From Candidatus Ratteibacteria bacterium (GTDB taxonomy: Bacteria > Ratteibacteria > UBA8468 > B48-G9 > DTJG01), in contig JBMFLH010000002.1 in NCBI GenBank assembly GCA_049971295.1, positions 15,240-79,239 of the forward strand: a stretch of DNA of 64,000 bases, written 5' to 3'. The first letter of the stretch is position 1. Each line of letters begins with the position of its first letter. The translations under genes and the position numbers were made by a program. Below are positions 1,429-48,942 of this stretch, one piece after another. The notes beneath the pieces are model-generated. The model made no database searches and was not told the origin of the DNA. It was given only the letters and a program-made list of their open reading frames with translations.

Positions 1429-1469
1429 TACTTAGATGTTTCCTGTTGCACGCTAATCCAGGAGCAATA

Positions 1470-2249: not shown

Positions 2250-2258
2250 AGGGGGCAT

Positions 2259-3086: not shown

Positions 3087-3109
3087 TTTTTAACAGAAAG
3101 GAGCAGAAA

Positions 3110-4597: not shown

Positions 4598-4650
4598 ATA
4601 AGGAACAAGGTCTTAATTTTGGAAGCAATTTACCGGTTTTATCATTGCAT

Positions 4651-5691: not shown

Positions 5692-6974
5692 AAATAGGCA
5701 CAGGCAATAGGAATGAGGTTCTGTCTGAACAAAAATTTATCTCTATTTTGCAGGATATCGTGATTTCTCTTGGACTGGAGAAAAAGCAAAAGGTTCTGGC
5801 CATTATACCTGATGGTACACGTTCAGGTCCAACTGGAACTGTTTTCAGAACCATTGTTGACACTCTTTACCAGCGGGTCAAAAAGCTGGATTTTATGATC
5901 GCTCTTGGAACTCATCCAGTAATGGTGCGGGAAAACATTGAAAAATTACTTGGTATTAACTGTGAGAAGTTCCAGGAAAAATATCCGCATACGCAGATAT
6001 TTCAACATTGCTGGGATGATGAGAAAACAATAGTGGAAATTGGCACCATTACAGCCAGCGAAATTTTGAAAATTTCTCATGGCCTTTTGAACGAAGATAT
6101 TCCTGTGACAATTAACAGAGCTATACTTGATTATGACCACATAATCCTTGCAGGACCTGTTTTTCCTCACGAGGTTGTTGGATTTTCTGGCGGATATAAG
6201 TATCTTTTTCCTGGAGTTTCGGGCCCTCATTTTCTTCACAAGTTTCACTGGCTTGGCGCTTTGATTACAAATCCTAAAATCAATGGCGTGAAAAATACTC
6301 CTGTAAGAGAAGCAATAAACAGAGCAGTTTCTTTTATAAGAAAGCCAATCACACAGATATGTTACGTCGTTAAGGAAAAAAAGGTCTATGGAATATTTGC
6401 AGGAGACAACGAGGCATGGTCTGCTGCCGCAGATCTATCATCACAGTTGAATATTGAATATGTTGACAGGAATTATAAAGAGGTGCTTTCAATAGCGCCA
6501 GTGATGTATGATGACATATGGACTGCTGGCAAATGTATGTATAAACTTGAACCGATTGTTTCTGATGGAGGAAACTTAATTATCTACGCTCCAAATATTA
6601 CAGAGGTTTCTTATACCCACGGAAAGTATATCAGGCAGGTCGGATATCATACGCGTGATTATTTTCTCAAACAATGGGAAAAATTTAAGAATTTTCCGGG
6701 TGGAATTCTCGCTCATTCCACTCATGTCAAGGGTATCGGTACTTTTATCAATGGAATTGAAACTCCAAGAATCAATGTTTATCTTGCAACTGGCATCAGT
6801 AAGGAGGTGTGCCAGCAGATTAACCTTGGCTACATCAATCCCATTGAAATCAATATTGATGATTTCCGAAAAAAACAGGATACTCTTGTTGTGGAAAATG
6901 CAGGAGAGGTGCTATTCAGGTTGAAAAGTGGCCAGATTCCTGACATCGACAAACTTTACGAGAAACAAAAATGA
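5688..6974 (+). CDS. LarA-family (DUF2088) nickel-pincer-nucleotide-dependent racemase/epimerase homolog
   Basis: IIPDGTRSGP, ALGTHPVM and VFPHEVVGFSGGYKYLFPGVSGPHFLHKFH align with the LarA PD.TRP / GSH / PHFFAGFSGGRKS active-site motifs, and the catalytic Lys and His are retained. ATGA overlap with the upstream gene and a GGGAGG RBS. Confidence 0.65.
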   Translation: MKIGTGNRNEVLSEQKFISILQDIVISLGLEKKQKVLAIIPDGTRSGPTGTVFRTIVDTLYQRVKKLDFMIALGTHPVMVRENIEKLLGINCEKFQEKYPHTQIFQHCWDDEKTIVEIGTITASEILKISHGLLNEDIPVTINRAILDYDHIILAGPVFPHEVVGFSGGYKYLFPGVSGPHFLHKFHWLGALITNPKINGVKNTPVREAINRAVSFIRKPITQICYVVKEKKVYGIFAGDNEAWSAAADLSSQLNIEYVDRNYKEVLSIAPVMYDDIWTAGKCMYKLEPIVSDGGNLIIYAPNITEVSYTHGKYIRQVGYHTRDYFLKQWEKFKNFPGGILAHSTHVKGIGTFINGIETPRINVYLATGISKEVCQQINLGYINPIEINIDDFRKKQDTLVVENAGEVLFRLKSGQIPDIDKLYEKQK

Positions 6975-8341
6975 GTTATTTATTCAAAAAACAATATCCG
7001 GATTTTAGATTTTTTGAAAGTTCATTAAGAAAATATGGTGACGATTATTATTTTGTTGCTGAAAAAAATGGAAAAATGTATCTGGTTGTGGGAAACAAAT
7101 CCTTTCAGTTTATTGAATATGAGAAATCATCTGAAATATTAAGGAAAACATTTTCATTTCTCACGCCGGTCTGTGCGGGCATGAAGAATTCTTTTGGTTT
7201 TGGAGACAGGACGGGTTTTGCAACTCCAGGGCACATCCGTGCGGTAAAGGGAAGTGAGTTTTTCCCGATTTTTGCACAGCAATCAGCAAGAGAACTTGAA
7301 AGAACAGGAAGAACATTCAAACAGGTTCTTGACGATGTGATATTTTGGTGTTTTGCCTTCGGCTGGACAGATGGTTTTGGAGCAGATGCTGACCATGCGA
7401 AAAGTTTTGATGTTTTACAACAGGCGATTTCTGCTGGTTACACATTTTTCACCATTGACCCTTCTGATAAAATCAAAAACCCATCAGATACATCATCATG
7501 TGAAAGGCATGGTATTGACAGATACATCAAGGAATACTCTGGTAAGAATTTTGCATGTAGTGGCTTTTCTTTTGTTTTCACTGAAGAAATGGTTTCTGAC
7601 CTCGCCATTACATATGGGAGAGCTATTGATTTTATCGAGGAGTGTTATTCATTTATTTCTGACAAAAAAAAGAATTTTGATTTTGAAATTTCGGTCGATG
7701 AAACAAAAGTTCCAACAACTCCTTATGCTCATGCGTTTATTGTTATGGAACTCCAAAAGAGAAATGTTGAATTTAATGGTTTGGCTTTGCGTTTTCCTGG
7801 AAGGTTTGAAAAAGGGATCGACTACATTGGAAATATGAATGAACTTGCCAGAGAACTTGAAATTCATAACGAGATACGGAATCATCTTGGACCGTATAAG
7901 ATTTCACTTCACTCTGGAAGCGACAAATTCAGTATTTATGGTACATTCAAAAAAATACTTGGAAGCATGTTTCATGTGAAAACATCAGGGACATCATGGA
8001 TTCAGTCAATGAAAACCGTTGCAGCAGTTGACAGAGAATTTTTTATAAAGTGTTTGGAAGTGGCGCTGAAGGATTTTGAAAAAAATTCAAAGTCATATGA
8101 AATTTCGGCAGACATTTCAAAATTGAATTTAGAAAAAATAAGAAATGAAAATCTTGATGAAATATTTTCCGATCATCATATCAGGCAGTTAATTCATATC
8201 AGTTATGGAAGTATTATTGGAAGCGCGCCTGAAAGTCAAAAAATGAAACAACACTACTACACCCTGATTGAAAAAAACTATGAACTTTATTTTCGTTTTG
8301 TTGAAGAACACCTGAAAAAACATATTCAACTGCTTATATGA
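6971..8341 (+). CDS. Putative sugar epimerase resembling the tagaturonate/fructuronate epimerase (UxaE) family
   Basis: Motifs SFGFGDRTGFATPGH and LHSGSDKFS are reminiscent of the UxaE family, recalled rather than searched. 456 aa, translationally coupled (ATGA) to the LarA homolog. Confidence 0.35.
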   Translation: MSYLFKKQYPDFRFFESSLRKYGDDYYFVAEKNGKMYLVVGNKSFQFIEYEKSSEILRKTFSFLTPVCAGMKNSFGFGDRTGFATPGHIRAVKGSEFFPIFAQQSARELERTGRTFKQVLDDVIFWCFAFGWTDGFGADADHAKSFDVLQQAISAGYTFFTIDPSDKIKNPSDTSSCERHGIDRYIKEYSGKNFACSGFSFVFTEEMVSDLAITYGRAIDFIEECYSFISDKKKNFDFEISVDETKVPTTPYAHAFIVMELQKRNVEFNGLALRFPGRFEKGIDYIGNMNELARELEIHNEIRNHLGPYKISLHSGSDKFSIYGTFKKILGSMFHVKTSGTSWIQSMKTVAAVDREFFIKCLEVALKDFEKNSKSYEISADISKLNLEKIRNENLDEIFSDHHIRQLIHISYGSIIGSAPESQKMKQHYYTLIEKNYELYFRFVEEHLKKHIQLLI

Positions 8342-8351
8342 AAGGAGAAAT

Positions 8352-10274
8352 ATGAACAAAAAGAGATTTCCTTATAGCCAGTTGCCTGAAAGTGAAATTA
8401 AAAGACTTCAGGAATTTAGTAATCTCTGTCGAAGGGATGTGCTTACAATGACAACCCTTGCAAAGTCAGGACATCCAGGTGGTTCAATGTCTGCTATGGA
8501 AATTTACAATGTTGTTTTTCATTATGCAGCAGTCAACCCTGACGCAGTAGATGACCCTGAGAGAGATAAAATCATTATCAGTTTTGGTCATACTTCTCCT
8601 GGTGTATATGCTGTGTTAGGAAGGATTGGTTTTTTTGATCTTGATACAGCCATTGCCTCTTTCAGACAAACAGGTAGTATTTTTGAAGGGCACATTGTAA
8701 GAAAAGTGCCGGGAATTGAATGGGGTACAGGTAATCTGGGACAGGGCCTATCTGCTGGTTGTGGTTTTGCTCTGATTGATAAAATAAAAAATCGTGATGC
8801 TTTTACATTTGTGTTGATGAGTGATGGTGAACAGACAAAGGGCCAGGTGGGCGAGGCTCGTCGTTTTGCAATCAAATACAAACTTAATAATCTCAGAGTC
8901 ATAATTGATTATAACAGAATCCAGATCAGCGGTTGCATTTTTGACATTATGCCCAACAACATTAAAGAAAACTATCTTGCTGATGGATGGGAAGTAATGG
9001 AGACCGATGGTCATGATATAGCAGGTCTTTATGACACGGTGAGGAGAAGTTTAGAAATTGATAAACCTGTTTGTATCATTGCCAGCACAGTGATTGGAAA
9101 AGGTGTTTCTTTTATGGAAGGTAAATGTGCTTATCATGGCAAGACCCTTGGAGAGGAAGAATATGATAAGGCAGTTAAAGAATTGGGTTTAGAAGGAGAA
9201 CTGGAAAAATATAAAGAAATGAGAAAGAAAAAAAAGTATTCATTTCCTGAAAGAAAATTTGATATACCAATTTCGATCAACATGGGTGCCCCGCGTACAT
9301 ATGAATCAGGTACAAAAATCGATAACAGGACCGCATTTGGAAATGCGCTTCTGGACCTTGGTATCGTGAACGAAGATAACAAGGAAAATCCTATTATTGT
9401 CTTTGATTGCGACCTTGCGAGTTCCGTAAAAACAGATTTATTCGCAAAGCGATTTCCTGAAAGATTTTTTCAATGCGGTGTTCAGGAGCATCACGCAGCG
9501 ACTGTATCCGGAGCTGCTTCTGTTGAGGGCGCTATCAGTTTTTTTGCAGATTTTGGAGTTTTCGGAGTGGATGAAACCTACAATCAGCACAGATTGAATG
9601 ACCAGAATTATACAAACTTAAAGATCGTGTGTACACATCTTGGGCTTGACGTGGGAGAAGATGGAAAAACTCATCAGTGTATTGATTATGTGGGACTATT
9701 CAGAAATGTTTTTGGAATAAAACTTATTATACCTGCAGATGCCAATCAGACCGATAGAGTGATAAGGTATGTTGCGGTAAAGTCCGGGAATTATTTTGTT
9801 GGGATGGGCCGGTCCCATACGCCGGTTATAACAACCCCTGACGGAAAACCATTTTTTGGAGAAAACTACATATTTGAATACGGCAAAGCAGATGTATTAA
9901 GAGATGGGAAAGATGGTTTCATTTATACAATGGGCGCTCTGGTACCAAGAGCAGTTACAATTTCTGACCGGCTCAGGCAGGATGGAATCAGTATTGGTGT
10001 TATAAATTGTTCATGTCCTGTTGAAATTGATAAGGACGCATTGGAACTCGGCATCAAAACAGGTTTGATAATATCATACGAAGACCATGTAGTTGATTCA
10101 GGACTTGGTATGACAATTGCGGCATATATCGCTGAAAAACAAATTGGCGTGAAATTCCACAGGTTTGGTATCAGAAAATATGGTAGTTCAGGAACACCTG
10201 ATGAACTTTATGCAGAACATGGACTTGACCCTGAAACAATGATATCGTTTATCAAAAACATTATTAAAAGATAA
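8352..10274 (+). CDS. tkt: Transketolase, full-length single polypeptide
   Basis: Motifs SGHPGGSMS, ISFGHTSPGVYAVLG, GNLGQGLSAGCGFA and MSDGEQTKGQ correspond to TktA ThDP-binding motifs. RBS AAAGGAG. Confidence 0.8.
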   Translation: MNKKRFPYSQLPESEIKRLQEFSNLCRRDVLTMTTLAKSGHPGGSMSAMEIYNVVFHYAAVNPDAVDDPERDKIIISFGHTSPGVYAVLGRIGFFDLDTAIASFRQTGSIFEGHIVRKVPGIEWGTGNLGQGLSAGCGFALIDKIKNRDAFTFVLMSDGEQTKGQVGEARRFAIKYKLNNLRVIIDYNRIQISGCIFDIMPNNIKENYLADGWEVMETDGHDIAGLYDTVRRSLEIDKPVCIIASTVIGKGVSFMEGKCAYHGKTLGEEEYDKAVKELGLEGELEKYKEMRKKKKYSFPERKFDIPISINMGAPRTYESGTKIDNRTAFGNALLDLGIVNEDNKENPIIVFDCDLASSVKTDLFAKRFPERFFQCGVQEHHAATVSGAASVEGAISFFADFGVFGVDETYNQHRLNDQNYTNLKIVCTHLGLDVGEDGKTHQCIDYVGLFRNVFGIKLIIPADANQTDRVIRYVAVKSGNYFVGMGRSHTPVITTPDGKPFFGENYIFEYGKADVLRDGKDGFIYTMGALVPRAVTISDRLRQDGISIGVINCSCPVEIDKDALELGIKTGLIISYEDHVVDSGLGMTIAAYIAEKQIGVKFHRFGIRKYGSSGTPDELYAEHGLDPETMISFIKNIIKR

Positions 10275-33723: not shown

Positions 33724-33797
33724 AGGCGGTTAGCTCAGTCGGCAAGAGCGCTTCCCTTACAAGGAAGAGGTCGTGGGTTCGATTCCCTCACCGCCTA
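33724..33797 (+). tRNA. tRNA-Val (anticodon TAC)
   Basis: Cloverleaf folded by hand: acceptor AGGCGGT/ACCGCCT, D-stem GCTC/GAGC, anticodon stem CTTCC/GGAAG with loop CTTACAA, T-arm GTGGG-TTCGATT-CCCTC (one U-U mismatch), discriminator A, no encoded CCA. Confidence 0.8.
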
Positions 33798-36973: not shown

Positions 36974-37261
36974 ATGGATGAAAAAAAGAATATGCTATAC
37001 AAAGCGCTTGCTCTCGGGATTGCTTCCCTTTCCCTCGTCGGGAAAAAGGGAAAAGAAATTTTGGAAGACCTCGAGAAAGAAGTAAAAGAAAAAAATCTTG
37101 AAGAAAAAATCGAGAAAAAGTTTTCTCGGATGCTGGAAAAAATGGAAAGAATAAAAGAAATAAAAAAAGAGAAAATTGCTGAAGTTTTTGGCGTCGCGAC
37201 AAAAGAAGAAATAGAAAACCTGAAGAAGGAGTTAGAGAATCTCAAGCATGGTAACCAATGA
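36974..37261 (+). CDS. Small Lys/Glu-rich coiled-coil protein (phasin-like or UbiK-like accessory-factor candidate), translationally coupled to ubiB
   Basis: GGGAGG RBS and an ATGA overlap with the ubiB start. The sequence is heptad-rich and 95 aa long. Confidence 0.5.
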   Translation: MDEKKNMLYKALALGIASLSLVGKKGKEILEDLEKEVKEKNLEEKIEKKFSRMLEKMERIKEIKKEKIAEVFGVATKEEIENLKKELENLKHGNQ

Positions 37262-38898
37262 ATATCCTTGGAGTCAGAAGAAAATATCGTCTTGCCAGTC
37301 GTGTCAGTTTTGTTCTGCGAACCATTATCAAACATGGGCTTGGTTATTTTATTGACAGAATTTTCAGAGAACCCCATTTCAGAATTCTTCATTTTCATAA
37401 AGCAACGGTACCGAAAAGAAAACAGTTATTAAGCACAGCAGAACGATTGCGTTGCGTTATTGAAGAACTTGGCCCTACATATATAAAAATTGGACAATTT
37501 TTCAGCACACGAGCTGATATTCTACCTGAGGATTTTCTTAAAGAATTGTCCAAACTGCAGGACAGTGTATCTCCTTTTTCTTTTGATGAAGTGAGAAAAA
37601 TAGTTGTTGAAGATTTCGGGAAACAGGTGGAAGAAATTTTTGTTGAATTTTCAAAACAACCGCAATTTTCTGCTTCAATTGGGCAGGTGCATTTTGCCAG
37701 ACTTTCTTCCGGGCAGGAGTGTGTTGTCAAGGTGCAAAGACCGGGTATTGAAGAAGTTGTCGCAGCAGATATTGAAGTATTAAAGGAAATACTCCGACTT
37801 GCTTCAAAGCATATTCCTGAATTGAAACAGTGGAATGTAGCAGATATGCTGGAAGAAGTGGGAGAACATTTGAGGAGACAGATGGACTTTATTTACGAAG
37901 CAGGAATGATGGAGAAATTAAAGGCATTTTATGCGAAGGTGGATATCCGGGTACCACGCGTATTATGGGAATACACGTCCAGAAGAGTTCTTACGATGGA
38001 ACAGATACACGGAATTAAAATTTTTGATGTTGCTAATCCAGATCAAAACATTCCACAGCGTCTCGTGAAAGGATTGTTTCAAACACTTTTTGAAACAGGT
38101 TATTTCCATGGAGATATTCACCCTGGAAATATCATGTTGACCGACGATGGAAACATTGCACTTGTTGACTTTGGTATTGTTGGGTATCTGTCTTTTGAAA
38201 AAAGAAAACAAATGGCTGGTATCATTTCTGGTGTGTTAAATGGCAATCTTTCAGAAGCTCTTCCACATCTGAAAAAGTTTTTTGGTGTGTCGTACCATGT
38301 GCCAGAAAACTTCGAAAAAGATGTAAGTTTTATCGTTGACAAGTATGGATCCCTTCCTCTAAAAAAAGTGCATCTGTCAGATATTGTCTATGATTTAATG
38401 AAACTGGCAAGAAGAATGAATATGAGACTTGATTCTGAAATAGGAATGCTCGCAAGAAACCTTATGAGTCTGGAAGCAATATGCGCCAGGATTAATCCAG
38501 GCGAAAGTTTGCTGAATCTTAGCAGAGTGTACTGGCAACCAGTACTGGAAACAGGAGTTTTTCAACGTTTTTGGATAGAGGATATAAAAAATTTATTTAT
38601 TTCTTACAGAAACCTTTTTGCAGAATTTCCTGAAAACTGGGAAGAGTTTTTAAAACTCAATAGAGAAAGAGTGGAGACCGAGCAGAAAATTGTCAGTCGT
38701 ATTGAGAGATATAACAGAAGTCTTGAGCACGCAAGTATAAACATTGGTTTTGCTATCTTACTATTACCTGTTCTCAGTGTTTTTTTGTTGATGGGTATTC
38801 GAATTATGCCTGTGGGGCTATTGATTCTTTCGGTTGCAATATTTATACTCTTTGTAATCCTTGTTTTTAAGTTGACTGCCGGGAAATACAATGATTGA
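37258..38898 (+). CDS. ubiB: ABC1/UbiB-family atypical protein kinase (ubiquinone-biosynthesis protein UbiB/AarF-like)
   Basis: ABC1 domain motifs (SIGQVHFARL, VKVQRPGI, HGDIHPGNIM, DFGIVG) and a C-terminal TM segment. Confidence 0.75.
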   Translation: MNILGVRRKYRLASRVSFVLRTIIKHGLGYFIDRIFREPHFRILHFHKATVPKRKQLLSTAERLRCVIEELGPTYIKIGQFFSTRADILPEDFLKELSKLQDSVSPFSFDEVRKIVVEDFGKQVEEIFVEFSKQPQFSASIGQVHFARLSSGQECVVKVQRPGIEEVVAADIEVLKEILRLASKHIPELKQWNVADMLEEVGEHLRRQMDFIYEAGMMEKLKAFYAKVDIRVPRVLWEYTSRRVLTMEQIHGIKIFDVANPDQNIPQRLVKGLFQTLFETGYFHGDIHPGNIMLTDDGNIALVDFGIVGYLSFEKRKQMAGIISGVLNGNLSEALPHLKKFFGVSYHVPENFEKDVSFIVDKYGSLPLKKVHLSDIVYDLMKLARRMNMRLDSEIGMLARNLMSLEAICARINPGESLLNLSRVYWQPVLETGVFQRFWIEDIKNLFISYRNLFAEFPENWEEFLKLNRERVETEQKIVSRIERYNRSLEHASINIGFAILLLPVLSVFLLMGIRIMPVGLLILSVAIFILFVILVFKLTAGKYND

Positions 38899-39886
38899 TT
38901 TTGTTGATGAAGCAAGAATATGGATAAAAGCTGGTGACGGAGGTCCTGGTTGCATTGCTTTCAGAAGAGAAAAATTTGTGCCAAAGGGCGGACCATCTGG
39001 TGGAGATGGTGGGAAAGGTGGGTCTGTGTATTTCAGAGCATGTAACAACGTGAAAACGCTGAGAGAGTATTATTATCACAGACATTTTAAAGCTGAAAGT
39101 GGCAAACCAGGCGAAGGCAATAATCGTACTGGAGCTGATGGCAAAGACATTATTCTGAAAGTTCCTCCTGGGACAGTTGTGATTGAAATCAGAGAGGGAG
39201 AAAAAGAGGTCATACTCGCGGATCTTGACAGAGATGGCGCTCAAGTACTTGCAGCCAGAGGTGGAAGAGGTGGAAAAGGTAATGCGAGTTTTAAAAGTTC
39301 AATAAATCAAGCGCCGAGAATAGCCACCCCCGGGGAATACGGTGAAGAAAAATTCATCAAACTTGAGTTAAAGCTAATTGCAGAAGTTGGTATTATTGGA
39401 TATCCCAATGCCGGTAAATCCACGTTTCTTTCAAAAATTTCAAATGCCAGACCAAAAATTGCAGATTATCCATTTACAACATTAAACCCAAATCTCGGGG
39501 TTGTTGTTCTGGACAATGAAAGGCAATTTGTTGCTGCTGATATACCAGGTCTCATTGAAGGAGCGTCTTCTGGAGCAGGACTCGGGATGAAATTTTTGCG
39601 TCATATTGAAAGGACAAAGGTTCTGGTTCATCTTGTTGACCTTTCTCAACCGGATGCAGCAAAAAGATATTATGACATCAGAAACGAAATTGGTTGTTAC
39701 GATGTAACATTGCTTGAAAAACCAGAAATTATAGTAGGTACAAAAATAGATTTACCGGTGTCTCACAATAACATCCGGGAATTAGAAAAAATTACTGATA
39801 GATATTTTCTTATTTCCAGTGTGACCAACCAAGGTATCAAACCATTATTGGAGGAAATCTGGAGGGTTCTTACACGGAAACTTTAA
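38891..39886 (+). CDS. obg: GTPase Obg/CgtA
   Basis: Obg fold with glycine-rich [10 protein letters not shown], followed by the GTPase motifs GYPNAGKST and DIPGLIEGA. Confidence 0.9.
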
Positions 39887-39888
39887 CT

Positions 39889-40998
39889 ATGGAACAGACA
39901 TTAAAAACAAGAAGCGAGCATCTGCTTGCCACATTTGAGGATATCAAGAAAAGAATAAAATGGGATCAGCTGGAACAAAGAGTTTTATCTCTTGAAAATG
40001 AAAAAAATGAAAAGGGATATTGGGATCCTAAGACAGATGGAGAGAAAATGAAGGAATGGAATCAACTTGTTGAAAAACGTATGAAATTTGATAAAATCAC
40101 CAAGTTATTTGAAAATTTTAATGCAAGTGTTGAACTTCTTGAAGAAAACCCGGATCCTGAACTGGAAAAAGAAGCATCCGGGATTCTTGAGGTAATTGCA
40201 AGGGAAATTGAAAATCTCAAAATAGAAATTTATTTCTCTGACCCGGTTGATAGAAACAATGCAATTCTTACACTTCATGCAGGAGCCGGTGGCACAGAGG
40301 CATGTGATTGGGTGGGTATGCTCTTTAGAATGTATTCGAAGTGGGCAGCGCGAAAAAATATAAGGGTTGAAGTGGTTGATTTTTTACCAGGAGAGGAGGC
40401 AGGTTTGAAAAGGATTACAGCAGTGTTTGCTGGTAATTATGCCTATGGATATTTAAAGGGTGAAACAGGAGTTCATCGGCTCGTGAGAATATCTCCTTTT
40501 GACGCCAACAAGCGTCGTCACACCAGTTTTGCCGCTGTGAATGTGATTCCAGAAGTGGACAGGGACATCAAGATAGAAATCAAAGAGGAAGATATTGAAC
40601 TTGAGACATTTCGTTCTGGTGGCAAAGGCGGTCAGAATGTGAATAAAGTTGAAACAGCGGTCAGAATAAAACATATACCAACAGGAATTGTTGTACAATG
40701 CCAGAACGAAAGAAGTCAGTTTAAGAATCGTGAAATGGCGATGAAAATTTTGCGAAGTCGACTGTATCAAATGCAGATTGAGAAAGAAAAGAAAAAAGAG
40801 GCACAACAGTGGGATGCTCAAAAAGAAATTGCCTGGGGAAGTCAAATTAGATCCTATGTGTTCTGTCCCTATACAATGGTAAAAGATCACCGTACACAGG
40901 TTGAAACAGGCAATGTTGAGGCAGTCATGGATGGGGAAATAGACCAGTTTATTCAGACGGAGATTGAATATCTTGCTCTTGAAAAAATGGAAAAATGA
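39889..40998 (+). CDS. prfB: Peptide chain release factor 2, encoded without the programmed +1 frameshift
   Basis: SPF tripeptide (RISPFDAN) and GGQ motif ([10 protein letters not shown]). The ORF is contiguous, with no CTT-TGA-C frameshift site. Confidence 0.9.
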
Positions 40999-41633
40999 AA
41001 ATACTTGTCACAGCGGGACCAACAAGAGAATATATTGACCCGGTTAGATTTATCAGCAATCCTTCCACAGGAACTCTTGGTTATTTAATTGCGAAAAAAG
41101 CAAAGGAAAAAGGTCATCAAGTGGTAATTGTTTCAGGCCCCTGTGACCTGCCAGAACTTAAGGGGGTTGAAAAAATTCAGGTAGAATCAGCCTTGCAGAT
41201 GAAACATGAGGTAGAGAAAATATTTCCAGAAATGGATGTCCTGGTGATGACTGCAGCAGTTTCTGATTGGAGGCCAGCAAAGAAGTTTCCTGAAAAATTG
41301 AAACTCAAAAGATCCTGGACATTAAAACTTGTGCCAAATCCGGATATTTTAAAAGGTGTTTCAAAGAAAAAGAAAAAGGAACAAATTATTGTCGGTTTTG
41401 CTCTGGAAAGCAATAATGTGCTGGAAAATGCAAAAAGGAAATTAATTGATAAGAAACTTGACATACTGGTTGCAAACACAGTAGAAAATTTTGGGAAATT
41501 TCCAGGACATGGTGAAATCTTTGTTATTTATTCTGATGGTAGAATAAAGAACTGCACTGGTTTTTCCAAGAAGGTTCTTGCCTCTTTTCTTTTAAAAGAA
41601 ATTGAACAGTTTCAGCAAAGGAAATTACGATGA
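40995..41633 (+). CDS. coaB: Phosphopantothenate-cysteine ligase (standalone CoaB domain)
   Basis: [22 protein letters not shown] matches the CoaB (DFP C-terminal domain) signature. 212 aa, with no CoaC domain. Confidence 0.75.
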
Positions 41634-42370
41634 GAGCAACGATACGACAGATATTGTTTATCATATTACTTACCACCCAGGTTTTGAATTGTCAGGAGGA
41701 ATCAAAGTCATCTGTAGTTGCATGCAATCGGGCACAGACAGCAATCGTCATTGACGGGAATCTTGATGAAAAAGAATGGAAAAATGCAGTGGCGCTTGAA
41801 CTTGTCAGGATTATTTCTCTCGAACAACCTGTTTCAAAAACCATTGCCTACTGTTTATATGATGGCCAGTATCTTTATTTCGCTTTTAAGTGCTATGACA
41901 TGGATATATGGGCAACATATGAAAAGCGCGATGCGCCATTATATGAAGAAGATGTTGTTGAGGTATTTTTCAAGCCAGACTGCTCAAAGAATTCGTATTA
42001 CGAATTTGAAGTTTCACCAAAAAATGTAATACTGGATGCATTGATCGGGGAACGAACTCTTACAGGTAATATGTTCTTCAGATTTGCAAAATGGAATTGC
42101 TCTGGATTGAAATCAGCAGTGAAAATAAAAGGAACTTTGAATCGGTGGGATGATATCGACCAGTACTGGACTGTTGAGATTGCGATCCCTTTTAAGTCAT
42201 TGCCCACAGTAAAAAAATCGCCTGTACCAGGTGATGAGTGGTTGTTTAATGTCTGTAGATACGATTATTCAATCTACCTTGAAAAAGGTGTTGAAACATT
42301 GACATACAGCCCGATTACAAAATTTGATTTTCACAGATATGAAGAATGGAGAATTTTGAAATTTCAATGA
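41630..42370 (+). CDS. Secreted protein with a CBM9-like (DOMON-like) carbohydrate-binding domain
   Basis: Signal peptide [22 protein letters not shown]. Motifs IDGNLDEKEWKNA, YLYFAFKCYD and EDVVEVFF resemble the family-9 carbohydrate-binding fold. Confidence 0.45.
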   Translation: MRATIRQILFIILLTTQVLNCQEESKSSVVACNRAQTAIVIDGNLDEKEWKNAVALELVRIISLEQPVSKTIAYCLYDGQYLYFAFKCYDMDIWATYEKRDAPLYEEDVVEVFFKPDCSKNSYYEFEVSPKNVILDALIGERTLTGNMFFRFAKWNCSGLKSAVKIKGTLNRWDDIDQYWTVEIAIPFKSLPTVKKSPVPGDEWLFNVCRYDYSIYLEKGVETLTYSPITKFDFHRYEEWRILKFQ

Positions 42371-42380
42371 AAGGAAAAAG

Positions 42381-44735
42381 ATGAGAATTTACGATTTTTC
42401 TTCGTCAGTGGAAGATATTGCGATAAAACAATCTGAATTTAGGCCACAGTATTTTCCTGAGGAAAAAATCAGAATTCTTGAGGTTGTTGATTTTCCATCT
42501 CTGGGTAAAATTACAGCGTTGAGATTTATTGAGTGGTGCCAGAAAAATCCATCGGGAGTGATATCGCTGCCAACAGGCAAAACCCCTGAACATTTCATCC
42601 ACTGGACCTGGTTTATTTTGAATAACTGGAACAGTAAGGATATGAAAGAACTCCTGGGAAAATATGGAATAGATACTTCATCAAAACCAGATATGTCTTC
42701 CTTGATTTTCGTTCAGATCGATGAATTTTTTCCGATGAATCCTGAACAGGAAAATAGTTTTATATGGTACATAAAAAACTTTTATGTAAAAAAATTTGGC
42801 CTGGACGAAAACAAGGCAATTTTGATTAATGCATGGACAACGGGATGTAAACAGGGAGAAAATCTCGGTAAACTTTTTCCTGACGGAAAAATCGATTTAT
42901 CTTTGAGGTACAGGCATCCGGCTAATCAGTTGGAACAACTTCAACAGAAAGCAATTTTTTCAGCCGACCAGTATGCAATGGAGTATGAGCAAAAAATCAG
43001 GGATCTTGGTGGAATTGGGTTTTTTCTCGGAGGAATAGGTCCGGATGGTCACATTGGTTTCAATATCAAAGGTTCAGACCATTTTAGCACGACGCGGCTT
43101 GCACCGATTAATTATGAAACTGCAGCAGCAGCAGCCACGGATCTGGGAGGCATAGAACTTGCGAGGGGGAAAGTTGTCATGACCATAGGTCTTCAGACAA
43201 TTACATTTAACCCTTCTGCCACAGCCATTATTATAGCAGCAGGGGAAAGCAAGGCGCCTGTTGTAAGAGATGCCATTGTCAATGAATCTTCATCCGAATA
43301 TCCTGCAACAGTTCTCAGAAAACTGAAGGGTTCGTGTTTCTATTTAACATCCGGAGCAACAAAACTTCTTGAGGAGAGAACCATCAGAAAGCTTGAAAAA
43401 AAATCACAGTTATCTTCCATTGATATTAATCGCATCATTATTGATATCGCAGTAAAAAATGGTAAAAATCTGGAATCCTTGATTGAATCTGATTTCTGCC
43501 AGAACAAAAAGGGGACCTTTCTTTTTAATAAAGAGAGGGATATTGTGTCCTTGAGTAAATCTGTTGCTTCGCTTTTGAAAGAAAGAATAGACAGAGGTAC
43601 CAGAACTATTGAAAATTGCATATTTTTGCATACAGAACCACATCATGACGATATCATGCTTGGTTATATGCCTTATATCATCCATCTTGTGAGAACTCCT
43701 TCGAACAAACACTATTTTGCCACACTGACAAGCGGTTTTACTTCAGTGACCAACAATTATGTTGTTTTACAGTTGAAAAATCTTGAAAACTTTATTGAAA
43801 CAAAGCAGTTCAAGCAGTTATTTGAGTCAGAATATTTTAATCCTGATGACATTGTTTCAAGAATCAGGGATGTTTATCATTACCTCGATGGGATCGCATC
43901 TGATAGCCCTGACATTCAAAAAGAAGCAACGGCACGAAGAATGTTAAGAAATCTTGTTGCTATCGTTAATTCGTATAACACCCAGGCAATAAAACGAAAA
44001 ATTTCGTGGTTTTTCCGATATTTTGAAAACTCGTATCCAGGAAAGAAAGATATTTCAGATGTGCAACTCCTAAAGGGAATGATTAGAGAATGGGAGGAAG
44101 AACTGTTATGGGGACATTTAGGATTTAACTGCGAAAATATTTTTCATCTAAGATTGCCTTTTTATACCGGAGATATTTTTACCAGGAAACCACAGTTGAA
44201 GGAAGATATTGTCCCGGTACTGTCTTTGATTGAAAAAGTTAAACCAGATATTATCACAGTGGCAATGGACCCAGAGGCAAGCGGACCCGATACGCATTAC
44301 AAGGTTTTTCAGGCAATTGCTGAAGCACTGGCGCTGTATTTGAAAAAATATCCTGATAGGTCTGTACGGGTGTGGGGATACAGGAATATCTGGTACAGAT
44401 TTCACCCTGCAGAGGCAGACATTATTGTACCTGTATCAATGAATTCGTTTGCAATTATGAAAAGTGCTTTTCACATCTGTTTTGGATCTCAAACAAGTGC
44501 GTCATTCCCGAGCTATGAATATGATGGACCGTTTTGTGACCTTGCTCAGAGAATCATGGCACAGCAATATGCTGCTCTGAAAATTTGTTTGGGGCGGGAT
44601 TTTTTCTATTCAAATGAAATTCCAAGGTTAAGGGCAACAAGAGGGCTGGTGTTTTTAAGAGACATGAGCCCTGATGAATTTTTTGCTGAAGCGCGATATA
44701 TGAAACAGGTAACTGAAAACTTGCAGGACATGTAA
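42381..44735 (+). CDS. Fusion protein: N-terminal NagB-like glucosamine-6-phosphate deaminase/isomerase domain plus C-terminal PIG-L/LmbE-like N-deacetylase domain
   Basis: N-domain: ISLPTGKTPEHF and GIGPDGHIGFN (NagB PTG.TP / G.G.DGH motifs). C-domain: LHTEPHHDDIMLG (PIG-L HPDD motif) and AMDPEASGPDTHYKV (HxDH-like). 784 aa. Confidence 0.5.
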   Translation: MRIYDFSSSVEDIAIKQSEFRPQYFPEEKIRILEVVDFPSLGKITALRFIEWCQKNPSGVISLPTGKTPEHFIHWTWFILNNWNSKDMKELLGKYGIDTSSKPDMSSLIFVQIDEFFPMNPEQENSFIWYIKNFYVKKFGLDENKAILINAWTTGCKQGENLGKLFPDGKIDLSLRYRHPANQLEQLQQKAIFSADQYAMEYEQKIRDLGGIGFFLGGIGPDGHIGFNIKGSDHFSTTRLAPINYETAAAAATDLGGIELARGKVVMTIGLQTITFNPSATAIIIAAGESKAPVVRDAIVNESSSEYPATVLRKLKGSCFYLTSGATKLLEERTIRKLEKKSQLSSIDINRIIIDIAVKNGKNLESLIESDFCQNKKGTFLFNKERDIVSLSKSVASLLKERIDRGTRTIENCIFLHTEPHHDDIMLGYMPYIIHLVRTPSNKHYFATLTSGFTSVTNNYVVLQLKNLENFIETKQFKQLFESEYFNPDDIVSRIRDVYHYLDGIASDSPDIQKEATARRMLRNLVAIVNSYNTQAIKRKISWFFRYFENSYPGKKDISDVQLLKGMIREWEEELLWGHLGFNCENIFHLRLPFYTGDIFTRKPQLKEDIVPVLSLIEKVKPDIITVAMDPEASGPDTHYKVFQAIAEALALYLKKYPDRSVRVWGYRNIWYRFHPAEADIIVPVSMNSFAIMKSAFHICFGSQTSASFPSYEYDGPFCDLAQRIMAQQYAALKICLGRDFFYSNEIPRLRATRGLVFLRDMSPDEFFAEARYMKQVTENLQDM

Positions 44736-44748
44736 ACAGAGGTGTGTC

Positions 44749-46140
44749 ATGAAGAGAAAGCCCAGAATCGGCATGCTCGGTGTTACCGCGCATCTGTACA
44801 AAAAGAAACTACCGGAGTTTGTGAATCATCTTTCCAAACATTTCAAATTTCTTGTTCAACAATGTTCTACTTTTGCACATATTGTTCCTTCAGAAATATC
44901 TTACACAACACACCTCGTAGAAAAAGCGTTCGCGAAAATGAGCCAATCTGATGTGGACGGGATTATTATTATATTTCTCTCCTACAGTCCCAGTTTTATT
45001 ATTGGACCTGTTATCAAATCCAGAAAGTTTCCGGTTCTCATGTGGAATACCCAGCAACTGTTTGAAATAACAAAAAATTTCTCGTCGTCTGACATGATGA
45101 ATAATCATGGTATGCACGGTGTTCAAGACCTTGCGAGTGTTTTGTTGAGGAATAATGTGCCATTTACTATTATCACAGGACATTATTCCCAGGAAGATAC
45201 CATTAAGGAGGTTGAGCGCTGGTGTAAATGTGCTGCAATTTGTCATGATTTGAAAAAATTGAATATAGGTCGGATTGGAGGAAGATTCAAGGATATGGGA
45301 GATTTTTCAATTCCTGATAGTCAGATTACAGATCTGATGGGTCCAAAAATTATTGAAATTAAAATGCATCAGTTGCATGAGATAGCAAATAGTATTTCAC
45401 CAGACGAGATATATAGAGTTATTGAGGATGAAAATAAAAAGTTTTATGTTAGCAATGACCTTGATATTGAAACGAGAAAAAAATCGGTTCGTCTGGAACT
45501 TGCCTTAAGAACATTGATTGACCAGCATCACCTCCAAGCGCTGGCAATTAATTTTATGGGCTTTGAAGGTAAAAATTATTCTATGCCGTTTGCTGCGATT
45601 TCAAAGTTTATTTCTGAAGGTATGGGCTATGGAGGGGAAGGTGATGTTGTTTGTTCGACAGGAGTTTGGATACTTCAACAGATTTCGGCACCTGCCTCAT
45701 TCACAGAGATGTTCACAACTGATTATAAAAACAACAGGATTCTTATGTCGCACATGGGTGAGTCAAACTTAAAAATGGCGAAAAATCCTCTGAAGATAAA
45801 ACTGGTTAAAAAAGATATGGGCATTCTTGAAAAGGGAGCTGCCACAAGCATGTTTTTATTTCAAATGAGACCTGGTTATGTGACATTATTCAATCTTGCC
45901 CCAGGTAGAAACAAGAGCTTTCGGATGATTGCAAGTACCGGATACATTGAAGATGCAGAACTTTTTCATGATATCATATCTCCACATTTTCTTCTTAAGA
46001 TTGAAACAGATGTAAGAGAGTTTTTGACCAGATATAGTAATATTGGAGGAACTCATCATCTTGCAATGGCTTATGGGGATGTTACAGAACAAATTAGAAC
46101 ACTTGCCGGTATCATGGGATTTGAGTTTTTCAAAATATAA
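44749..46140 (+). CDS. L-arabinose isomerase (AraA) family sugar isomerase
   Basis: GMGYGGEGDVV, MSHMGESN and GGTHHLAMAYGD align with AraA metal/substrate motifs (GYGFAGEGD, GSHMLE, GGAHH), recalled from memory. Confidence 0.6.
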   Translation: MKRKPRIGMLGVTAHLYKKKLPEFVNHLSKHFKFLVQQCSTFAHIVPSEISYTTHLVEKAFAKMSQSDVDGIIIIFLSYSPSFIIGPVIKSRKFPVLMWNTQQLFEITKNFSSSDMMNNHGMHGVQDLASVLLRNNVPFTIITGHYSQEDTIKEVERWCKCAAICHDLKKLNIGRIGGRFKDMGDFSIPDSQITDLMGPKIIEIKMHQLHEIANSISPDEIYRVIEDENKKFYVSNDLDIETRKKSVRLELALRTLIDQHHLQALAINFMGFEGKNYSMPFAAISKFISEGMGYGGEGDVVCSTGVWILQQISAPASFTEMFTTDYKNNRILMSHMGESNLKMAKNPLKIKLVKKDMGILEKGAATSMFLFQMRPGYVTLFNLAPGRNKSFRMIASTGYIEDAELFHDIISPHFLLKIETDVREFLTRYSNIGGTHHLAMAYGDVTEQIRTLAGIMGFEFFKI

Positions 46141-46148
46141 CTTCAGTC

Positions 46149-47531
46149 ATGGACAGAATCCTTTCTTTTGATAGTGGCACGACAAATACAAAGGTTTTTA
46201 TTTATTATCTGAATGGCGCTCTTATCAATAGTGCCTCCAGACGGGTTGATATCACATTTCCCTATCCCCTGTTTGCTGAGCAAAACTGTGATGACTGGGT
46301 TGATGCATTAATCCGGGCGATCATGAAGATAGAAAAGAAAAAAAACATCAGTGGTATCAGTGGAAGTTTTCAGGGTGGAACTTTTGTTTTGCTTGACCAG
46401 CATCTTTCACCTTTGAGACCCGCAATCACATGGCTTGATAACAGGGCAAGGGACATTGCAAAAAATTTCGTGTCAAAATTTGGCAAAAAGTTTTTTTATA
46501 ATAAAACAGGGTATATGCCGGGTGGATGGTCCTGTATTACTCTTCTCAGATGGTTGAAAGAAAATGAACCGGATGTGTTTAATAAAACAGCTCGCATTTC
46601 ATTTGTTGCGGACTACATAAATTATTTTCTAACCGGGAATTTTGTGCTTGACCATACAAATGCAGCAATTACGACACTGTATAATATTAAGAAACGATGC
46701 TGGGATGATGACCTTATTGAACTGGCAGGAATCAATAAACGGATGCTTCCTGAAATTGTTGATGCTACCAGTGTGATTGGAAAATTAAGAAAAAGTTTTG
46801 CACGGAGATCTGAATTAAAGGAAGGCATTGTTGTGCTGGCTGGCGGACATGACCAGTATTGTGCAAGTCTGGGAGCAGGTGCTGCGAAAATAGGAAAAAT
46901 ACTTGTTTCATGCGGAACTGCCTGGGTTTTGCTTATTACCACTCAGGATATTGTTTTTGATCGCTTGATGCAATTTGCTCCTGGTCCACATGTGGTACCA
47001 GGTGTTTATGGATTGATGGCAGCTTTGAGCAATGGGGGCGTAATTTATGCATGGGGAAAAAATATTTTGCGAAAGCATCAGGTTTATTTTAACAAGCCCT
47101 CTGATGTGATTGTTTTACCTGATTTTAATGCTGCCAGGGGTGCTATTTGCAATCTCAGTCTTTCCACAAAACCCCTAAAGATACTTCAGGCAATTATTGA
47201 ATCCCTGTGTTATCAGGTTAGAGAAAACCTCGAGAGAATTGAAAAAACTTTGCCTCATAGAGAAAAGGTTACTCATCTGGTAATGATAGGCGGAGCGTCC
47301 AGAAATATTCATGTGGCAAATTTTTTAGCCACTATTACAAAAAAACAGATTTTTTTGCCAGAAATTAAAGAAGCCGCTGGTTGTGGCGCCATGAATCTTT
47401 TTAACCTGCATCATGGATGCAAAATGAACCTTTCTGGCATGACTGTTGATGGAAACAAAAATTTATATCATGATTACGATGAAAAGTACAAACATTATAT
47501 TGACTTAAGAAGAAACTTCCTGAAGAGATGA
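46149..47531 (+). CDS. FGGY-family carbohydrate kinase (xylulokinase/ribulokinase-like)
   Basis: N-terminal SFDSGTTNTK and ITWLDNRA motifs, with a C-terminal FGGY domain GGASRN. Confidence 0.7.
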   Translation: MDRILSFDSGTTNTKVFIYYLNGALINSASRRVDITFPYPLFAEQNCDDWVDALIRAIMKIEKKKNISGISGSFQGGTFVLLDQHLSPLRPAITWLDNRARDIAKNFVSKFGKKFFYNKTGYMPGGWSCITLLRWLKENEPDVFNKTARISFVADYINYFLTGNFVLDHTNAAITTLYNIKKRCWDDDLIELAGINKRMLPEIVDATSVIGKLRKSFARRSELKEGIVVLAGGHDQYCASLGAGAAKIGKILVSCGTAWVLLITTQDIVFDRLMQFAPGPHVVPGVYGLMAALSNGGVIYAWGKNILRKHQVYFNKPSDVIVLPDFNAARGAICNLSLSTKPLKILQAIIESLCYQVRENLERIEKTLPHREKVTHLVMIGGASRNIHVANFLATITKKQIFLPEIKEAAGCGAMNLFNLHHGCKMNLSGMTVDGNKNLYHDYDEKYKHYIDLRRNFLKR

Positions 47532-48653
47532 TTCTTTGATTTTTGTCAGTGCAACCTGAACAACTGAAAATATTATTCCAACAATCATTGATACCATATA
47601 TGGAGCCCTTTTTCCAAGCCACAAAGTAAGTACTCCACCAACCAGAGAACCACTACCAACTCCTATTCCAATGATTGCTTCAAAAATACCAACAGCTAAT
47701 GCACGGTGCTTGTTTATTGTAAATGCTGTATGAAGTGCGTAAGCATAATAGATTCCGCACAAAGTGCCTCCAAGAAGTATGAAATTTAATGAAAAGAGAA
47801 ATATTGAATTTGTGAATATCAGTCCTGAAAGAGAAAAATAAGCAAAAAAACCAAACACAGTAAACAAAAAAGGTTTTTGATAAAGTTTTTCTCTCTGACT
47901 GAAAACAAAAAATGTTATGGTTCTGAATGCATCCATGATGGAAAACAACAATCCGATCATATATGGCTGTAAGCTAATGTCAACAGCAAGTTTCGGAAAA
48001 AGATTTCTCACAGCACCAAAGGAAAAATAAACAGCAAAAGTTCCTATGTACGCTGCAATGAGAATTTTTGTGTTTGAAACAGGCGCATCTTTCTTATCGT
48101 TCTGTATAACCTTTTTTTCAACTGGTGGAATGGATTTTACAATACTCAAAGCAAATACAATTATGAGAAAAAGAAGTGCGGATACCATTAAAGGAGCAAC
48201 AAAAAATTTTTGATATAGAAACCCCGCTATTATTGGTCCAAGTACTGTTCCAGTACTCCAGGCAACACTGAATTTCCCCACAACTTCACCTATGTGTCTT
48301 CCTTCGGTTTCCTGATTCATTCTCACCATCAGAGGCGGCCAGAATCCAGCAAAAGAGATACCGGCGCCAGCTGCTATGAAGTATAGATGTTGTATTGAAT
48401 TGCTTATCATTGTTATTATGATAAATAGAAAAATTACTGCAGCTGACACCAGTGGTAAATTGACTTTCAGTTGTTTGCCTGAAAGAACTCCAAATAAAAC
48501 GGAAAATGGGATATAAAACAAAGATGTAATGCTACCAAGAATGCCGAGTTGTTGAGCAGTGGCACCATATTTTATTGCAATGAGAGGTAGTGTGAAAAAA
48601 AATAACTGTCCTGAAAATTCTGTCAAAAAAGAAATTATAAAAAATTTTTTCAT
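47505..48653 (-). CDS. MFS-family transporter
   Basis: Twelve predicted TM segments. Start placed at MKKFFIISF (48653), which avoids overlap with ogt. Confidence 0.7.
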   Translation of the reverse strand: MKKFFIISFLTEFSGQLFFFTLPLIAIKYGATAQQLGILGSITSLFYIPFSVLFGVLSGKQLKVNLPLVSAAVIFLFIIITMISNSIQHLYFIAAGAGISFAGFWPPLMVRMNQETEGRHIGEVVGKFSVAWSTGTVLGPIIAGFLYQKFFVAPLMVSALLFLIIVFALSIVKSIPPVEKKVIQNDKKDAPVSNTKILIAAYIGTFAVYFSFGAVRNLFPKLAVDISLQPYMIGLLFSIMDAFRTITFFVFSQREKLYQKPFLFTVFGFFAYFSLSGLIFTNSIFLFSLNFILLGGTLCGIYYAYALHTAFTINKHRALAVGIFEAIIGIGVGSGSLVGGVLTLWLGKRAPYMVSMIVGIIFSVVQVALTKIKESSLQEVSS

Positions 48654-48663
48654 TTTAGTTGTT

Positions 48664-48942
48664 TTAGAGGACGATTTTTTTCTCCCATTCCAGTATGAAT
48701 TTTTTAAATTCCTTGCCAAGTTTATATCCACCAGAGTCTCCATTTGAACATATAATTCTGTGGCAGGGAATCGCAATGAGATCATGGTTTTGGCCTAATA
48801 TTTTTCCGACAGTCCTCGGGCTGATTCTCCCGCATTTCATGGCAATATATTTATATGTTGATGTGCCGCCAAATTTGACACGATTGACCTGAGCAAATAC
48901 CATTTTTTTGAGATGGGCTTTGTTAATATTTGCCATATTCAA
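48664..48942 (-). CDS. ogt: Methylated-DNA-[protein]-cysteine S-methyltransferase, short single-domain form
   Basis: Active-site IPCHRII motif and an HTH DNA-binding region. 92 aa. Confidence 0.75.

Follow-up and report, generated by a model that had tools for sequence, protein, structure and literature searches.

A NagB–LmbE/PIG-L fusion protein from Candidatus Ratteibacteria and its possible role in the processing of N-acetylglucosamine 6-phosphate

What does a protein act upon that carries a glucosamine-6-phosphate deaminase (NagB)-type domain and an LmbE/PIG-L-type deacetylase domain on one polypeptide, and do the sugar-related genes around it serve the same pathway? The question is raised by a 784-amino-acid (aa) protein encoded in a 64 000-nucleotide (nt) stretch of Candidatus Ratteibacteria DNA (assembly GCA_049971295.1, contig JBMFLH010000002.1, positions 15 240 to 79 239 of the forward strand), hereafter the window, whose first nucleotide is position 1 of the coordinates given below. 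A preliminary description, made from the sequence, had called the fusion unusual and placed its gene in a five-gene cluster with a secreted CBM9-like protein, an AraA-family isomerase, an FGGY kinase and a convergent MFS transporter. Together these would import and process an N-acetylated amino sugar or related glycan unit. The reading that we prefer, at a probability of roughly 0.55, is that the fusion acts on N-acetylglucosamine 6-phosphate (GlcNAc-6-P), which it would deacetylate and probably deaminate, and that the AraA-like isomerase and the FGGY kinase form a separate module; this figure and the gradings of the alternatives weighed below belong to overlapping readings and are not expected to add up to unity.

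The 784-residue protein joins a NagB-fold domain to an LmbE/PIG-L-fold domain through a helical linker, in the following layout.

42381–44735, + strand: NagB–LmbE fusion gene, 784 aa (ORF list, domain and structure searches)
42381–43400, + strand: N-terminal NagB-fold domain, aa 1–340 (Foldseek, family profile)
43401–43613, + strand: helical linker, aa ~341–411 (AlphaFold model; helices 346–360, 376–384 and 388–407)
43614–44735, + strand: C-terminal LmbE/PIG-L-fold domain, aa 412–784 (Foldseek, motif, NF002557)

The Pfam scores of the window protein fell just under the gathering thresholds (Glucosamine_iso, PF01182, 24.4 bits against 27; PIG-L, PF02585, 20.2 bits against 28.2), while among 52 aligned fusion homologues Glucosamine_iso was matched in 45 and PIG-L in 34 (E ≤ 0.01). 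When the halves were compared separately with the NCBIfam model NF002557, each matched its own part of the profile, the N half with 100.4 bits (profile positions 144–326) and the C half with 82.7 bits (425–598); the whole fusion scored 180.6 bits against a cutoff of 384. A profile of the fusion family retrieved solved NagB structures from the PDB at E = 3e-22. An AlphaFold model built on the homologue alignment (predicted local distance difference test score, pLDDT, 86.1; predicted template modelling score, pTM, 0.84) was then compared by domain with Foldseek: the N-terminal domain matched NagB structures 3hn6, 2bkv and 1dea at E ~1e-14 (target template modelling score, TM, 0.82–0.89), and the C-terminal domain, of the Rossmann-like LmbE fold, matched LnmX (5bmo, 3.6e-5) and the Pyrococcus diacetylchitobiose deacetylases 8bgo, 3wl4, 4xm1 and 3we7 (3–7e-4; target TM 0.58–0.65). 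The halves on NF002557, the family profile and the modelled structure all confirm the fusion that had been proposed, and the doubt raised at the time, that the C-terminal region might not be PIG-L-like, is answered by its LmbE-fold matches and an invariant HxDD...H signature.

That signature is the defining feature of the LmbE superfamily (HxD1D2+H), in which the metal is coordinated by D2 and the two histidines, with D1 serving as general base; the characterised LmbE-like enzymes all hydrolyse GlcNAc-containing substrates by means of this site (PMC4101496). In the fusion the metal motif is H421-H422-D423-D424 (nt 43641–43652) together with H639, and both the HHDD (aa 421–424) and the DTH (aa 637–639) motifs picked out in the preliminary description proved invariant in the 52 homologues. 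The second and third metal ligands are 215 residues apart, against 97–148 in characterised members (PMC4101496), because a helical insert of ~120 aa lies within the deacetylase domain of the AlphaFold model (aa ~458–580; nt 43752–44120). In the NagB half, alignment to the Escherichia coli enzyme, whose residue numbering we checked against its sequence, showed four functional positions and the phosphate loop to be retained and two positions to be lost. We take Asp72, Asp141 and His143 of E. coli NagB to be catalytic and Lys208 to bind phosphate. The conserved and altered positions are as follows; the loop, D114, D222, H224, K291 and the D637-T638-H639 motif are invariant in the 52 homologues.

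42573–42587, + strand: TGKTP, aa 65–69, the TGxTP loop of NagB
42720–42725, + strand: D114-E115, with D114 equivalent to E. coli NagB Asp72
43044–43052, + strand: D222-G-H224, with D222 and H224 equivalent to Asp141 and His143
43251–43253, + strand: K291, equivalent to Lys208
44289–44297, + strand: D637-T638-H639, motif of the LmbE-fold domain
Lost (alignment): E. coli NagB Glu148, replaced by Ile229 (FNEPGS to FNIKGS)
Lost (alignment): E. coli NagB Arg172, replaced by Thr253

An extra lysine, Lys67, is invariant within the phosphate loop at a place occupied by glycine in E. coli NagB, and judged from the alignment it could compensate for the missing Arg172. Deaminase activity of the NagB half is thus plausible and not assured, given the loss of two NagB residues and the presence of a canonical NagB gene directly downstream of the fusion in four loci described below.

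It is chiefly the genes surrounding homologues of the fusion that support a NagA-like function for the LmbE domain. We clustered the open reading frames (ORFs) of 80 fusion-bearing genome loci and annotated the recurrent neighbours (loci carry L numbers). In Calditrichota (L040 and L044) the gene order is a BadF-type kinase, a GH3 plus beta-lactamase protein (NagZ-like), two SSF symporters, the fusion and a 308-aa ORF. In L044 this ORF carries the annotation of a MurQ-like SIS etherase, and genes for a Na:Ala symporter and for an alanine racemase come after it. MurQ forms GlcNAc-6-P from N-acetylmuramic acid 6-phosphate, so the next enzyme required is a GlcNAc-6-P deacetylase, and it is the fusion that takes this place. 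In Bacteroidota and Ignavibacteriota the neighbours comprise two Amidase_3 proteins, an NlpC/P60 protein with SH3 domain, an MR_MLE epimerase-like protein, a Beta-lactamase2/S11 protein, a GH3 fusion, a BadF-type kinase and SpoIID. Among 106 immediate neighbours outside the window clade, the recurrent families included Beta-lactamase2 (7), PD40 (6), Peptidase_S11 (5), canonical Glucosamine_iso (4), GH94, GH18 and Fe-ADH (3 each), and ROK and SSF (2 each), and Amidohydro_1, the family of NagA, was not one of them. These are contexts of peptidoglycan and chitin (GlcNAc) salvage in which no NagA adjoins the fusion.

The four canonical Glucosamine_iso neighbours, two of them in Latescibacterota and two in Ignavibacteria-type genomes, encode NagB proteins of ~260–280 aa that have kept FNEPGS and lie directly downstream of the fusion at these locus coordinates.

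L009, 4834–5616: canonical NagB
L023, 8135–8977: canonical NagB
L057, 12529–13335: canonical NagB
L061, 12373–13164: canonical NagB

They cut both ways, tying the fusion to glucosamine 6-phosphate (GlcN-6-P) and yet making a deaminase of its own less necessary. As a separate observation, the Bacteroidota/Ignavibacteriota clusters L039, L058 and L064 (~18–22 kilobases, kb, in locus coordinates) begin with GHL10 and TIG-domain proteins bearing type IX secretion system (T9SS) tails, and end with an MFS protein, a GT2 glycosyltransferase and a DUF4922 protein.

What the data show are the two folds, their motifs, the size of the family and the contexts of its genes; substrates and activities are inferred, as follows. 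GlcNAc-6-P would be supplied by a kinase acting on GlcNAc or by MurQ. The C-terminal domain, a predicted single-metal His-Asp-His hydrolase, would deacetylate it to GlcN-6-P, a step that is normally the job of the unrelated amidohydrolase NagA, and the N-terminal domain would probably isomerise and deaminate GlcN-6-P to fructose 6-phosphate and ammonia, with less certainty than attaches to the deacetylation. The homologue contexts, which point to GlcNAc-6-P, agree with the idea that a single polypeptide performs both steps; the deamination part is made less sure by the altered NagB site and by the canonical NagB genes downstream.

The proposed reactions are those of E. coli NagA and NagB. The fusion shares with that pair the NagB fold and the equivalents of D72, D141, H143 and K208, but it differs in being one polypeptide, in lacking equivalents of E148 and R172 and in having an LmbE-fold deacetylase, whereas NagA is an amidohydrolase TIM barrel. 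With Dac, the archaeal diacetylchitobiose deacetylase of Pyrococcus and Thermococcus (3wl4, 3we7, 4xm1, 8bgo), it has in common the LmbE fold and the HxDD+H site, although Dac is a stand-alone protein of ~270 aa that acts on unphosphorylated chitobiose or GlcNAc and is only ~14% identical to the fusion. The chitin pathway of Dac ends with a glucosamine-6-phosphate deaminase. For the fusion, in contrast, a phosphorylated substrate is suggested by the MurQ gene of the Calditrichota clusters. The closest catalogued relative is the 'glucosamine-6-phosphate deaminase-like protein' of NF002557 (PRK02122), which has ~653 aa and the same order of the two domains; the window family is longer (~780 aa), and carries the ~120-aa insert in the deacetylase domain, and the window protein scores less than half of the cutoff. 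By the NCBI threshold the window fusion would not be a member of NF002557, and on these sequence comparisons it appears to represent a sister subfamily.

A homologue search with the fusion returned 6748 significant matches. The best 120 of these were mostly full-length proteins of ~780 aa with 54–91% identity, a few being partial, and came from Omnitrophota, Latescibacterota, Lentisphaerae, Planctomycetota, Calditrichota, Firestonebacteria, TA06 and others. Identity between phyla is 50–60% and mean column identity 64%, a degree of conservation that would fit a constrained central enzyme. When one genome of each GTDB species was scanned with patterns tuned only to close relatives, 278 relatives were recovered. 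The C-terminal half used alone as query gave 547 clusters at 50% identity, and proteins of 740–850 aa matched at their C-terminal end made up many of these; forms of ~640–670 aa were also present, on which the C half aligned in two stretches or, in a few cases, one, and the short matches may be fragments or stand-alone versions. The window fusion is itself 100% identical to an NCBI protein, and homologues bear the NCBI label 'glucosamine-6-phosphate deaminase'. If 'unusual' was meant as rare, the word does not suit a family of this size that is already annotated automatically; the architecture is catalogued in NCBIfam and the gene in itself is no discovery. What sets the ~780-aa form apart is its score below the NF002557 cutoff, its large insert and its altered NagB site. 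Several deaminase isozymes have been reported in Bacteroides, including BT_0258, which appears only under the name of a 'deaminase isozyme' and is induced on mucin/GlcNAc (PMC13634575).

Is the fusion part of one functional unit with the genes beside it? All five ORFs of the supposed cluster are present in the window, the four besides the fusion being these.

41630–42370, + strand: CBM9-like secreted protein gene, 246 aa (ORF list, Pfam)
44749–46140, + strand: AraA-family aldose-ketose isomerase gene, 463 aa (Pfam, residue alignment)
46149–47531, + strand: FGGY-family sugar kinase gene, 460 aa (Pfam)
47505–48653 (longest ORF to 48785), − strand: convergent MFS transporter gene (Pfam MFS_1)

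The CBM9-like, fusion, AraA-like and FGGY genes are separated by intergenic gaps of only 8–13 nt, and they belong to a single co-directional string (37258–47531; gaps −8 to +13 nt) that includes housekeeping genes. A scan for promoters and terminators yielded no usable operon boundaries, and an Rfam scan of the window found no riboswitch, its sole match being one tRNA gene (33724–33797, + strand). The order CBM9-like–fusion–AraA-like–FGGY was found only in L001–L008, L015 (partial), L041 and L091, all with a fusion showing 70% identity or more to that of the window; upstream, Obg, PrfB and CoaB-like (DFP) genes are likewise common to these loci. Since the shared upstream housekeeping genes lie in the same tight string, spacing and order alone are no proof of joint function. 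In 70 of the 80 related genome loci the fusion occurs without AraA or FGGY genes, and other Ratteibacteria have the two at separate places, the fusion in L032 and L036 and the AraA-like cluster in L081, so the adjacency seen in the window clade is derived. A PIG-L gene near the AraA-like gene of L081 was considered as a relative of the C half of the fusion and rejected, as it encodes a secreted, canonical PIG-L protein with no BLAST match to the fusion.

The MFS gene is a variable neighbour. Among related loci long enough to show the region after the kinase, it comes after the kinase in just three (L001, L002 and L041); in L003, L005 and L008 a HisI-like gene comes directly after the kinase, with SecD next in L003 and L008. 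The view of the five genes as one import and processing pathway, with the transporter as a component, is therefore unproven, the gene order being limited to the closest clade, which also shares the Obg–PrfB–CoaB-like genes.

The transporter and kinase genes overlap by 27 nt at their 3′ ends. The longest MFS ORF spans 47505–48785 (− strand), with 48653 as an internal start at Met45; this is the likely start, since it avoids overlap with a 92-aa ogt-like ORF (48664–48942, − strand). The latter has only the DNA-binding/active-site domain of O6-methylguanine-DNA methyltransferase (PF01035, 68.6 bits), including a PCHR motif, and lacks the N-terminal domain; the MFS ORF runs into it only in its longest form. 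Concerning Obg, an identical fusion lies on an 8985-bp NCBI contig (L086) on which Obg is called as two pieces of 246 aa and 90 aa (L086 286–1273), and the window Obg (38891–39886) is a single intact ORF of 331 aa, which suggests a frameshift difference between assemblies.

The family assignments made earlier for the neighbouring proteins were all upheld by Pfam. The 246-aa protein matches CBM9_1 (PF06452; 39.4 bits against 23.4, E 7.9e-10, profile positions 1–139 of 185) and begins with a hydrophobic, signal-like segment (hydropathy of the first ~20 residues). It would be a secreted binding protein. Its gene stands upstream of the fusion in the closest clade only, at 53–87% identity, and in L011 it sits among unrelated genes. 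The transporter matches MFS_1 at 104 bits and no specific NCBIfam family. The kinase matches FGGY_N (195.7 bits) and FGGY_C (62.7 bits), its nearest models being those of xylulokinases (XylB, TIGR01312, 235.7 bits; cutoff 380.25). The 463-aa isomerase has all three AraA domains (AraA_N 39.6, AraA_central 35 and Arabinose_Iso_C 54.1 bits, each above cutoff), and, in an alignment with solved AraA structures, its invariant E297, E320, H335 and H436/H437 fall on the motifs GEGD, FMEDY, AHMLE and GGAHH, so that the four metal/catalytic residues are kept, but it scores far below the equivalogs AraA (NF002795; 119.7 bits against 622) and SftI (88.8 against 700). No AraD-type aldolase/epimerase was found by Pfam among the five genes of the cluster, the rest of the window and the genome not having been searched. 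The isomerase and kinase would convert an aldose to a ketose and then to a ketose phosphate, the sugar being unassigned.

Relatives of the isomerase form a small family (267 matches) that keeps other company than AraA and SftI. Partners in 87 AraA-like loci were FGGY (36), Amidohydro_2 (28), GFO_IDH_MocA/GH109-like (27), Aminotran_3 (23), DeoR (11) and a DhnA/DeoC-type aldolase (11), and only in the window's own clade did the fusion lie near the AraA-like gene. L087 and L085 have FGGY genes beside or near their AraA-like genes; the window kinase shares 40% identity with that of L087 and 34% with that of L085, and on the strength of these identities we regard isomerase and kinase as a mobile two-gene module. 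None of the partner proteins scored above an NCBIfam cutoff, and the set fits no named pathway that we found. It recurs in L081, L083, L085, L087, L088 and L092–L170, sometimes with URO-D-like proteins. As speculation, it would fit the breakdown of an N-acylated amino-deoxy sugar, for example a 4-acetamido-4,6-dideoxyhexose, by deacylation, transamination, reduction, isomerisation, phosphorylation and aldol cleavage.

Several points weigh against a GlcNAc-6-P deacetylase-deaminase standing apart from its neighbours. Ile229 and Thr253 replace two residues of the NagB site, and the canonical FNEPGS enzymes downstream in L009, L023, L057 and L061 make the need for a second deaminase domain less obvious. 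In many phyla the fusion gene is flanked by unrelated housekeeping genes (the contexts P0031 and P0050 are uninformative in this way), and the bringing of AraA-like and FGGY genes beside the fusion in the window clade could reflect a functional link. A literature search found no experimental function for the NF002557 form or the ~780-aa form, and no assay or study of a NagB–LmbE/PIG-L fusion, of PRK02122 or of a bifunctional deacetylase/deaminase. The first two of these points lead to the alternative that the PIG-L domain is the sole catalyst, a NagA analogue, and that the NagB-like domain binds sugar phosphates, regulates, acts as a scaffold or isomerises with another specificity. We hold this to be unlikely, if still a serious contender: Glu148 and Arg172 are replaced throughout the family, the score against the NagB equivalog TIGR00502 is far under the cutoff (78.3 bits against 236.9), and a canonical NagB lies within ~5 kb in L018 and L089 in addition to the four loci where it is directly downstream, but an invariant set of Asp72, Asp141, His143 and Lys208 equivalents with the TGxTP loop, in 52 sequences from many phyla, is hard to explain in a non-catalytic domain. 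Lys67 could stand in for Arg172, and redundancy of deaminases is normal, as the isozymes of Bacteroides illustrate (PMC13634575). That the N-terminal domain might instead be a 6-phosphogluconolactonase, a possibility the preliminary description had itself raised, is very improbable, and we rejected it. PF01182 spans both activities within one superfamily and Foldseek does list lactonase structures (E 5e-7 to 2e-5), but NagB is better by about seven orders of magnitude by fold (1e-14 against ~1e-6), the lone lactonase match of the family profile in the PDB has E = 1.6, and NCBIfam matches are solely to deaminase-type models.

The CBM9-like, fusion, AraA-like and FGGY proteins, possibly with the MFS transporter, might import and degrade a single substrate, an N-acetylated amino sugar or glycan unit distinct from GlcNAc itself, with PIG-L and NagB-like domains removing the acetyl and amino groups in the role that Amidohydro_2 and Aminotran_3 fill elsewhere. 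In its favour are the 8–13-nt gaps, the keeping of gene order where the proteins have diverged to 53–74% identity, the derived nature of the adjacency (the two parts being apart in L032, L036 and L081) and the frequent amine-handling or deacylating genes in AraA-like loci (Aminotran_3 in 23/87, Amidohydro_2 in 28/87, PIG-L in L081), by which the AraA-like module seems tied to amino-sugar-type substrates. We find it doubtful nevertheless, as the upstream Obg–PrfB–CoaB-like genes are shared at the same tight spacing, so that order may mirror relatedness, and the L081 PIG-L is unrelated to the fusion. The chemistry is also awkward: aldose-ketose isomerases need a free 2-OH and an unphosphorylated sugar, NagB needs a 2-amino sugar phosphate, no simple order of reactions employs all four enzymes, and the cluster is without an aldolase or other downstream enzyme. 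It is likewise doubtful, though conceivable, that the fusion was recruited in this Ratteibacteria lineage beside a module marking an undescribed amino-sugar pathway, one that would elsewhere employ Amidohydro_2, Aminotran_3, GFO_IDH_MocA/GH109-like and DhnA-type aldolase genes, and in which the four genes degrade an N-acetylated amino sugar other than GlcNAc. An anabolic or salvage function, with both domains feeding a GlcN-6-P pool for the cell wall, the NagB-like domain in reverse from fructose 6-phosphate and ammonia and the deacetylase by salvage of GlcNAc-6-P, draws on the strong conservation of the family, on the reversibility of the NagB reaction and on the frequent occurrence of the gene by itself amid housekeeping genes (Omnitrophota, Elusimicrobia, Planctomycetota and others), but it is improbable, since the informative contexts are degradative (amidases, GH3, GH18, GH94, MurQ, symporters).

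Should the LmbE domain be a GlcNAc-6-P deacetylase, the label 'glucosamine-6-phosphate deaminase' would miss the NagA step, and salvage of GlcNAc and peptidoglycan would be wrongly scored as incomplete in reconstructions of many candidate phyla and of Bacteroidota. A phosphosugar substrate would be added to the LmbE superfamily, and two consecutive steps would be fused with NagA replaced by an unrelated structure. The LmbE-fold domain may be a substitute for NagA that is widespread but not homologous to it, joined to an altered NagB across thousands of bacteria, most of them uncultivated. The gene set recurring around the AraA-like isomerase is a separate lead to an unnamed sugar pathway.

Elsewhere in the window lies a second cluster, of sugar-acid type (1446–10274, + strand), in which the Gnd-like and transketolase-like genes were identified by eye and the tagaturonate epimerase UxaE scored 467 bits.

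1446–2249, + strand: KduI/IolB
2259–3086, + strand: SDR
3083–4597, + strand: Gnd-like gene
4555–5691, + strand: HAD protein
5688–6974, + strand: LarA-like Lar_N protein
6971–8341, + strand: tagaturonate epimerase UxaE
8352–10274, + strand: transketolase-like gene

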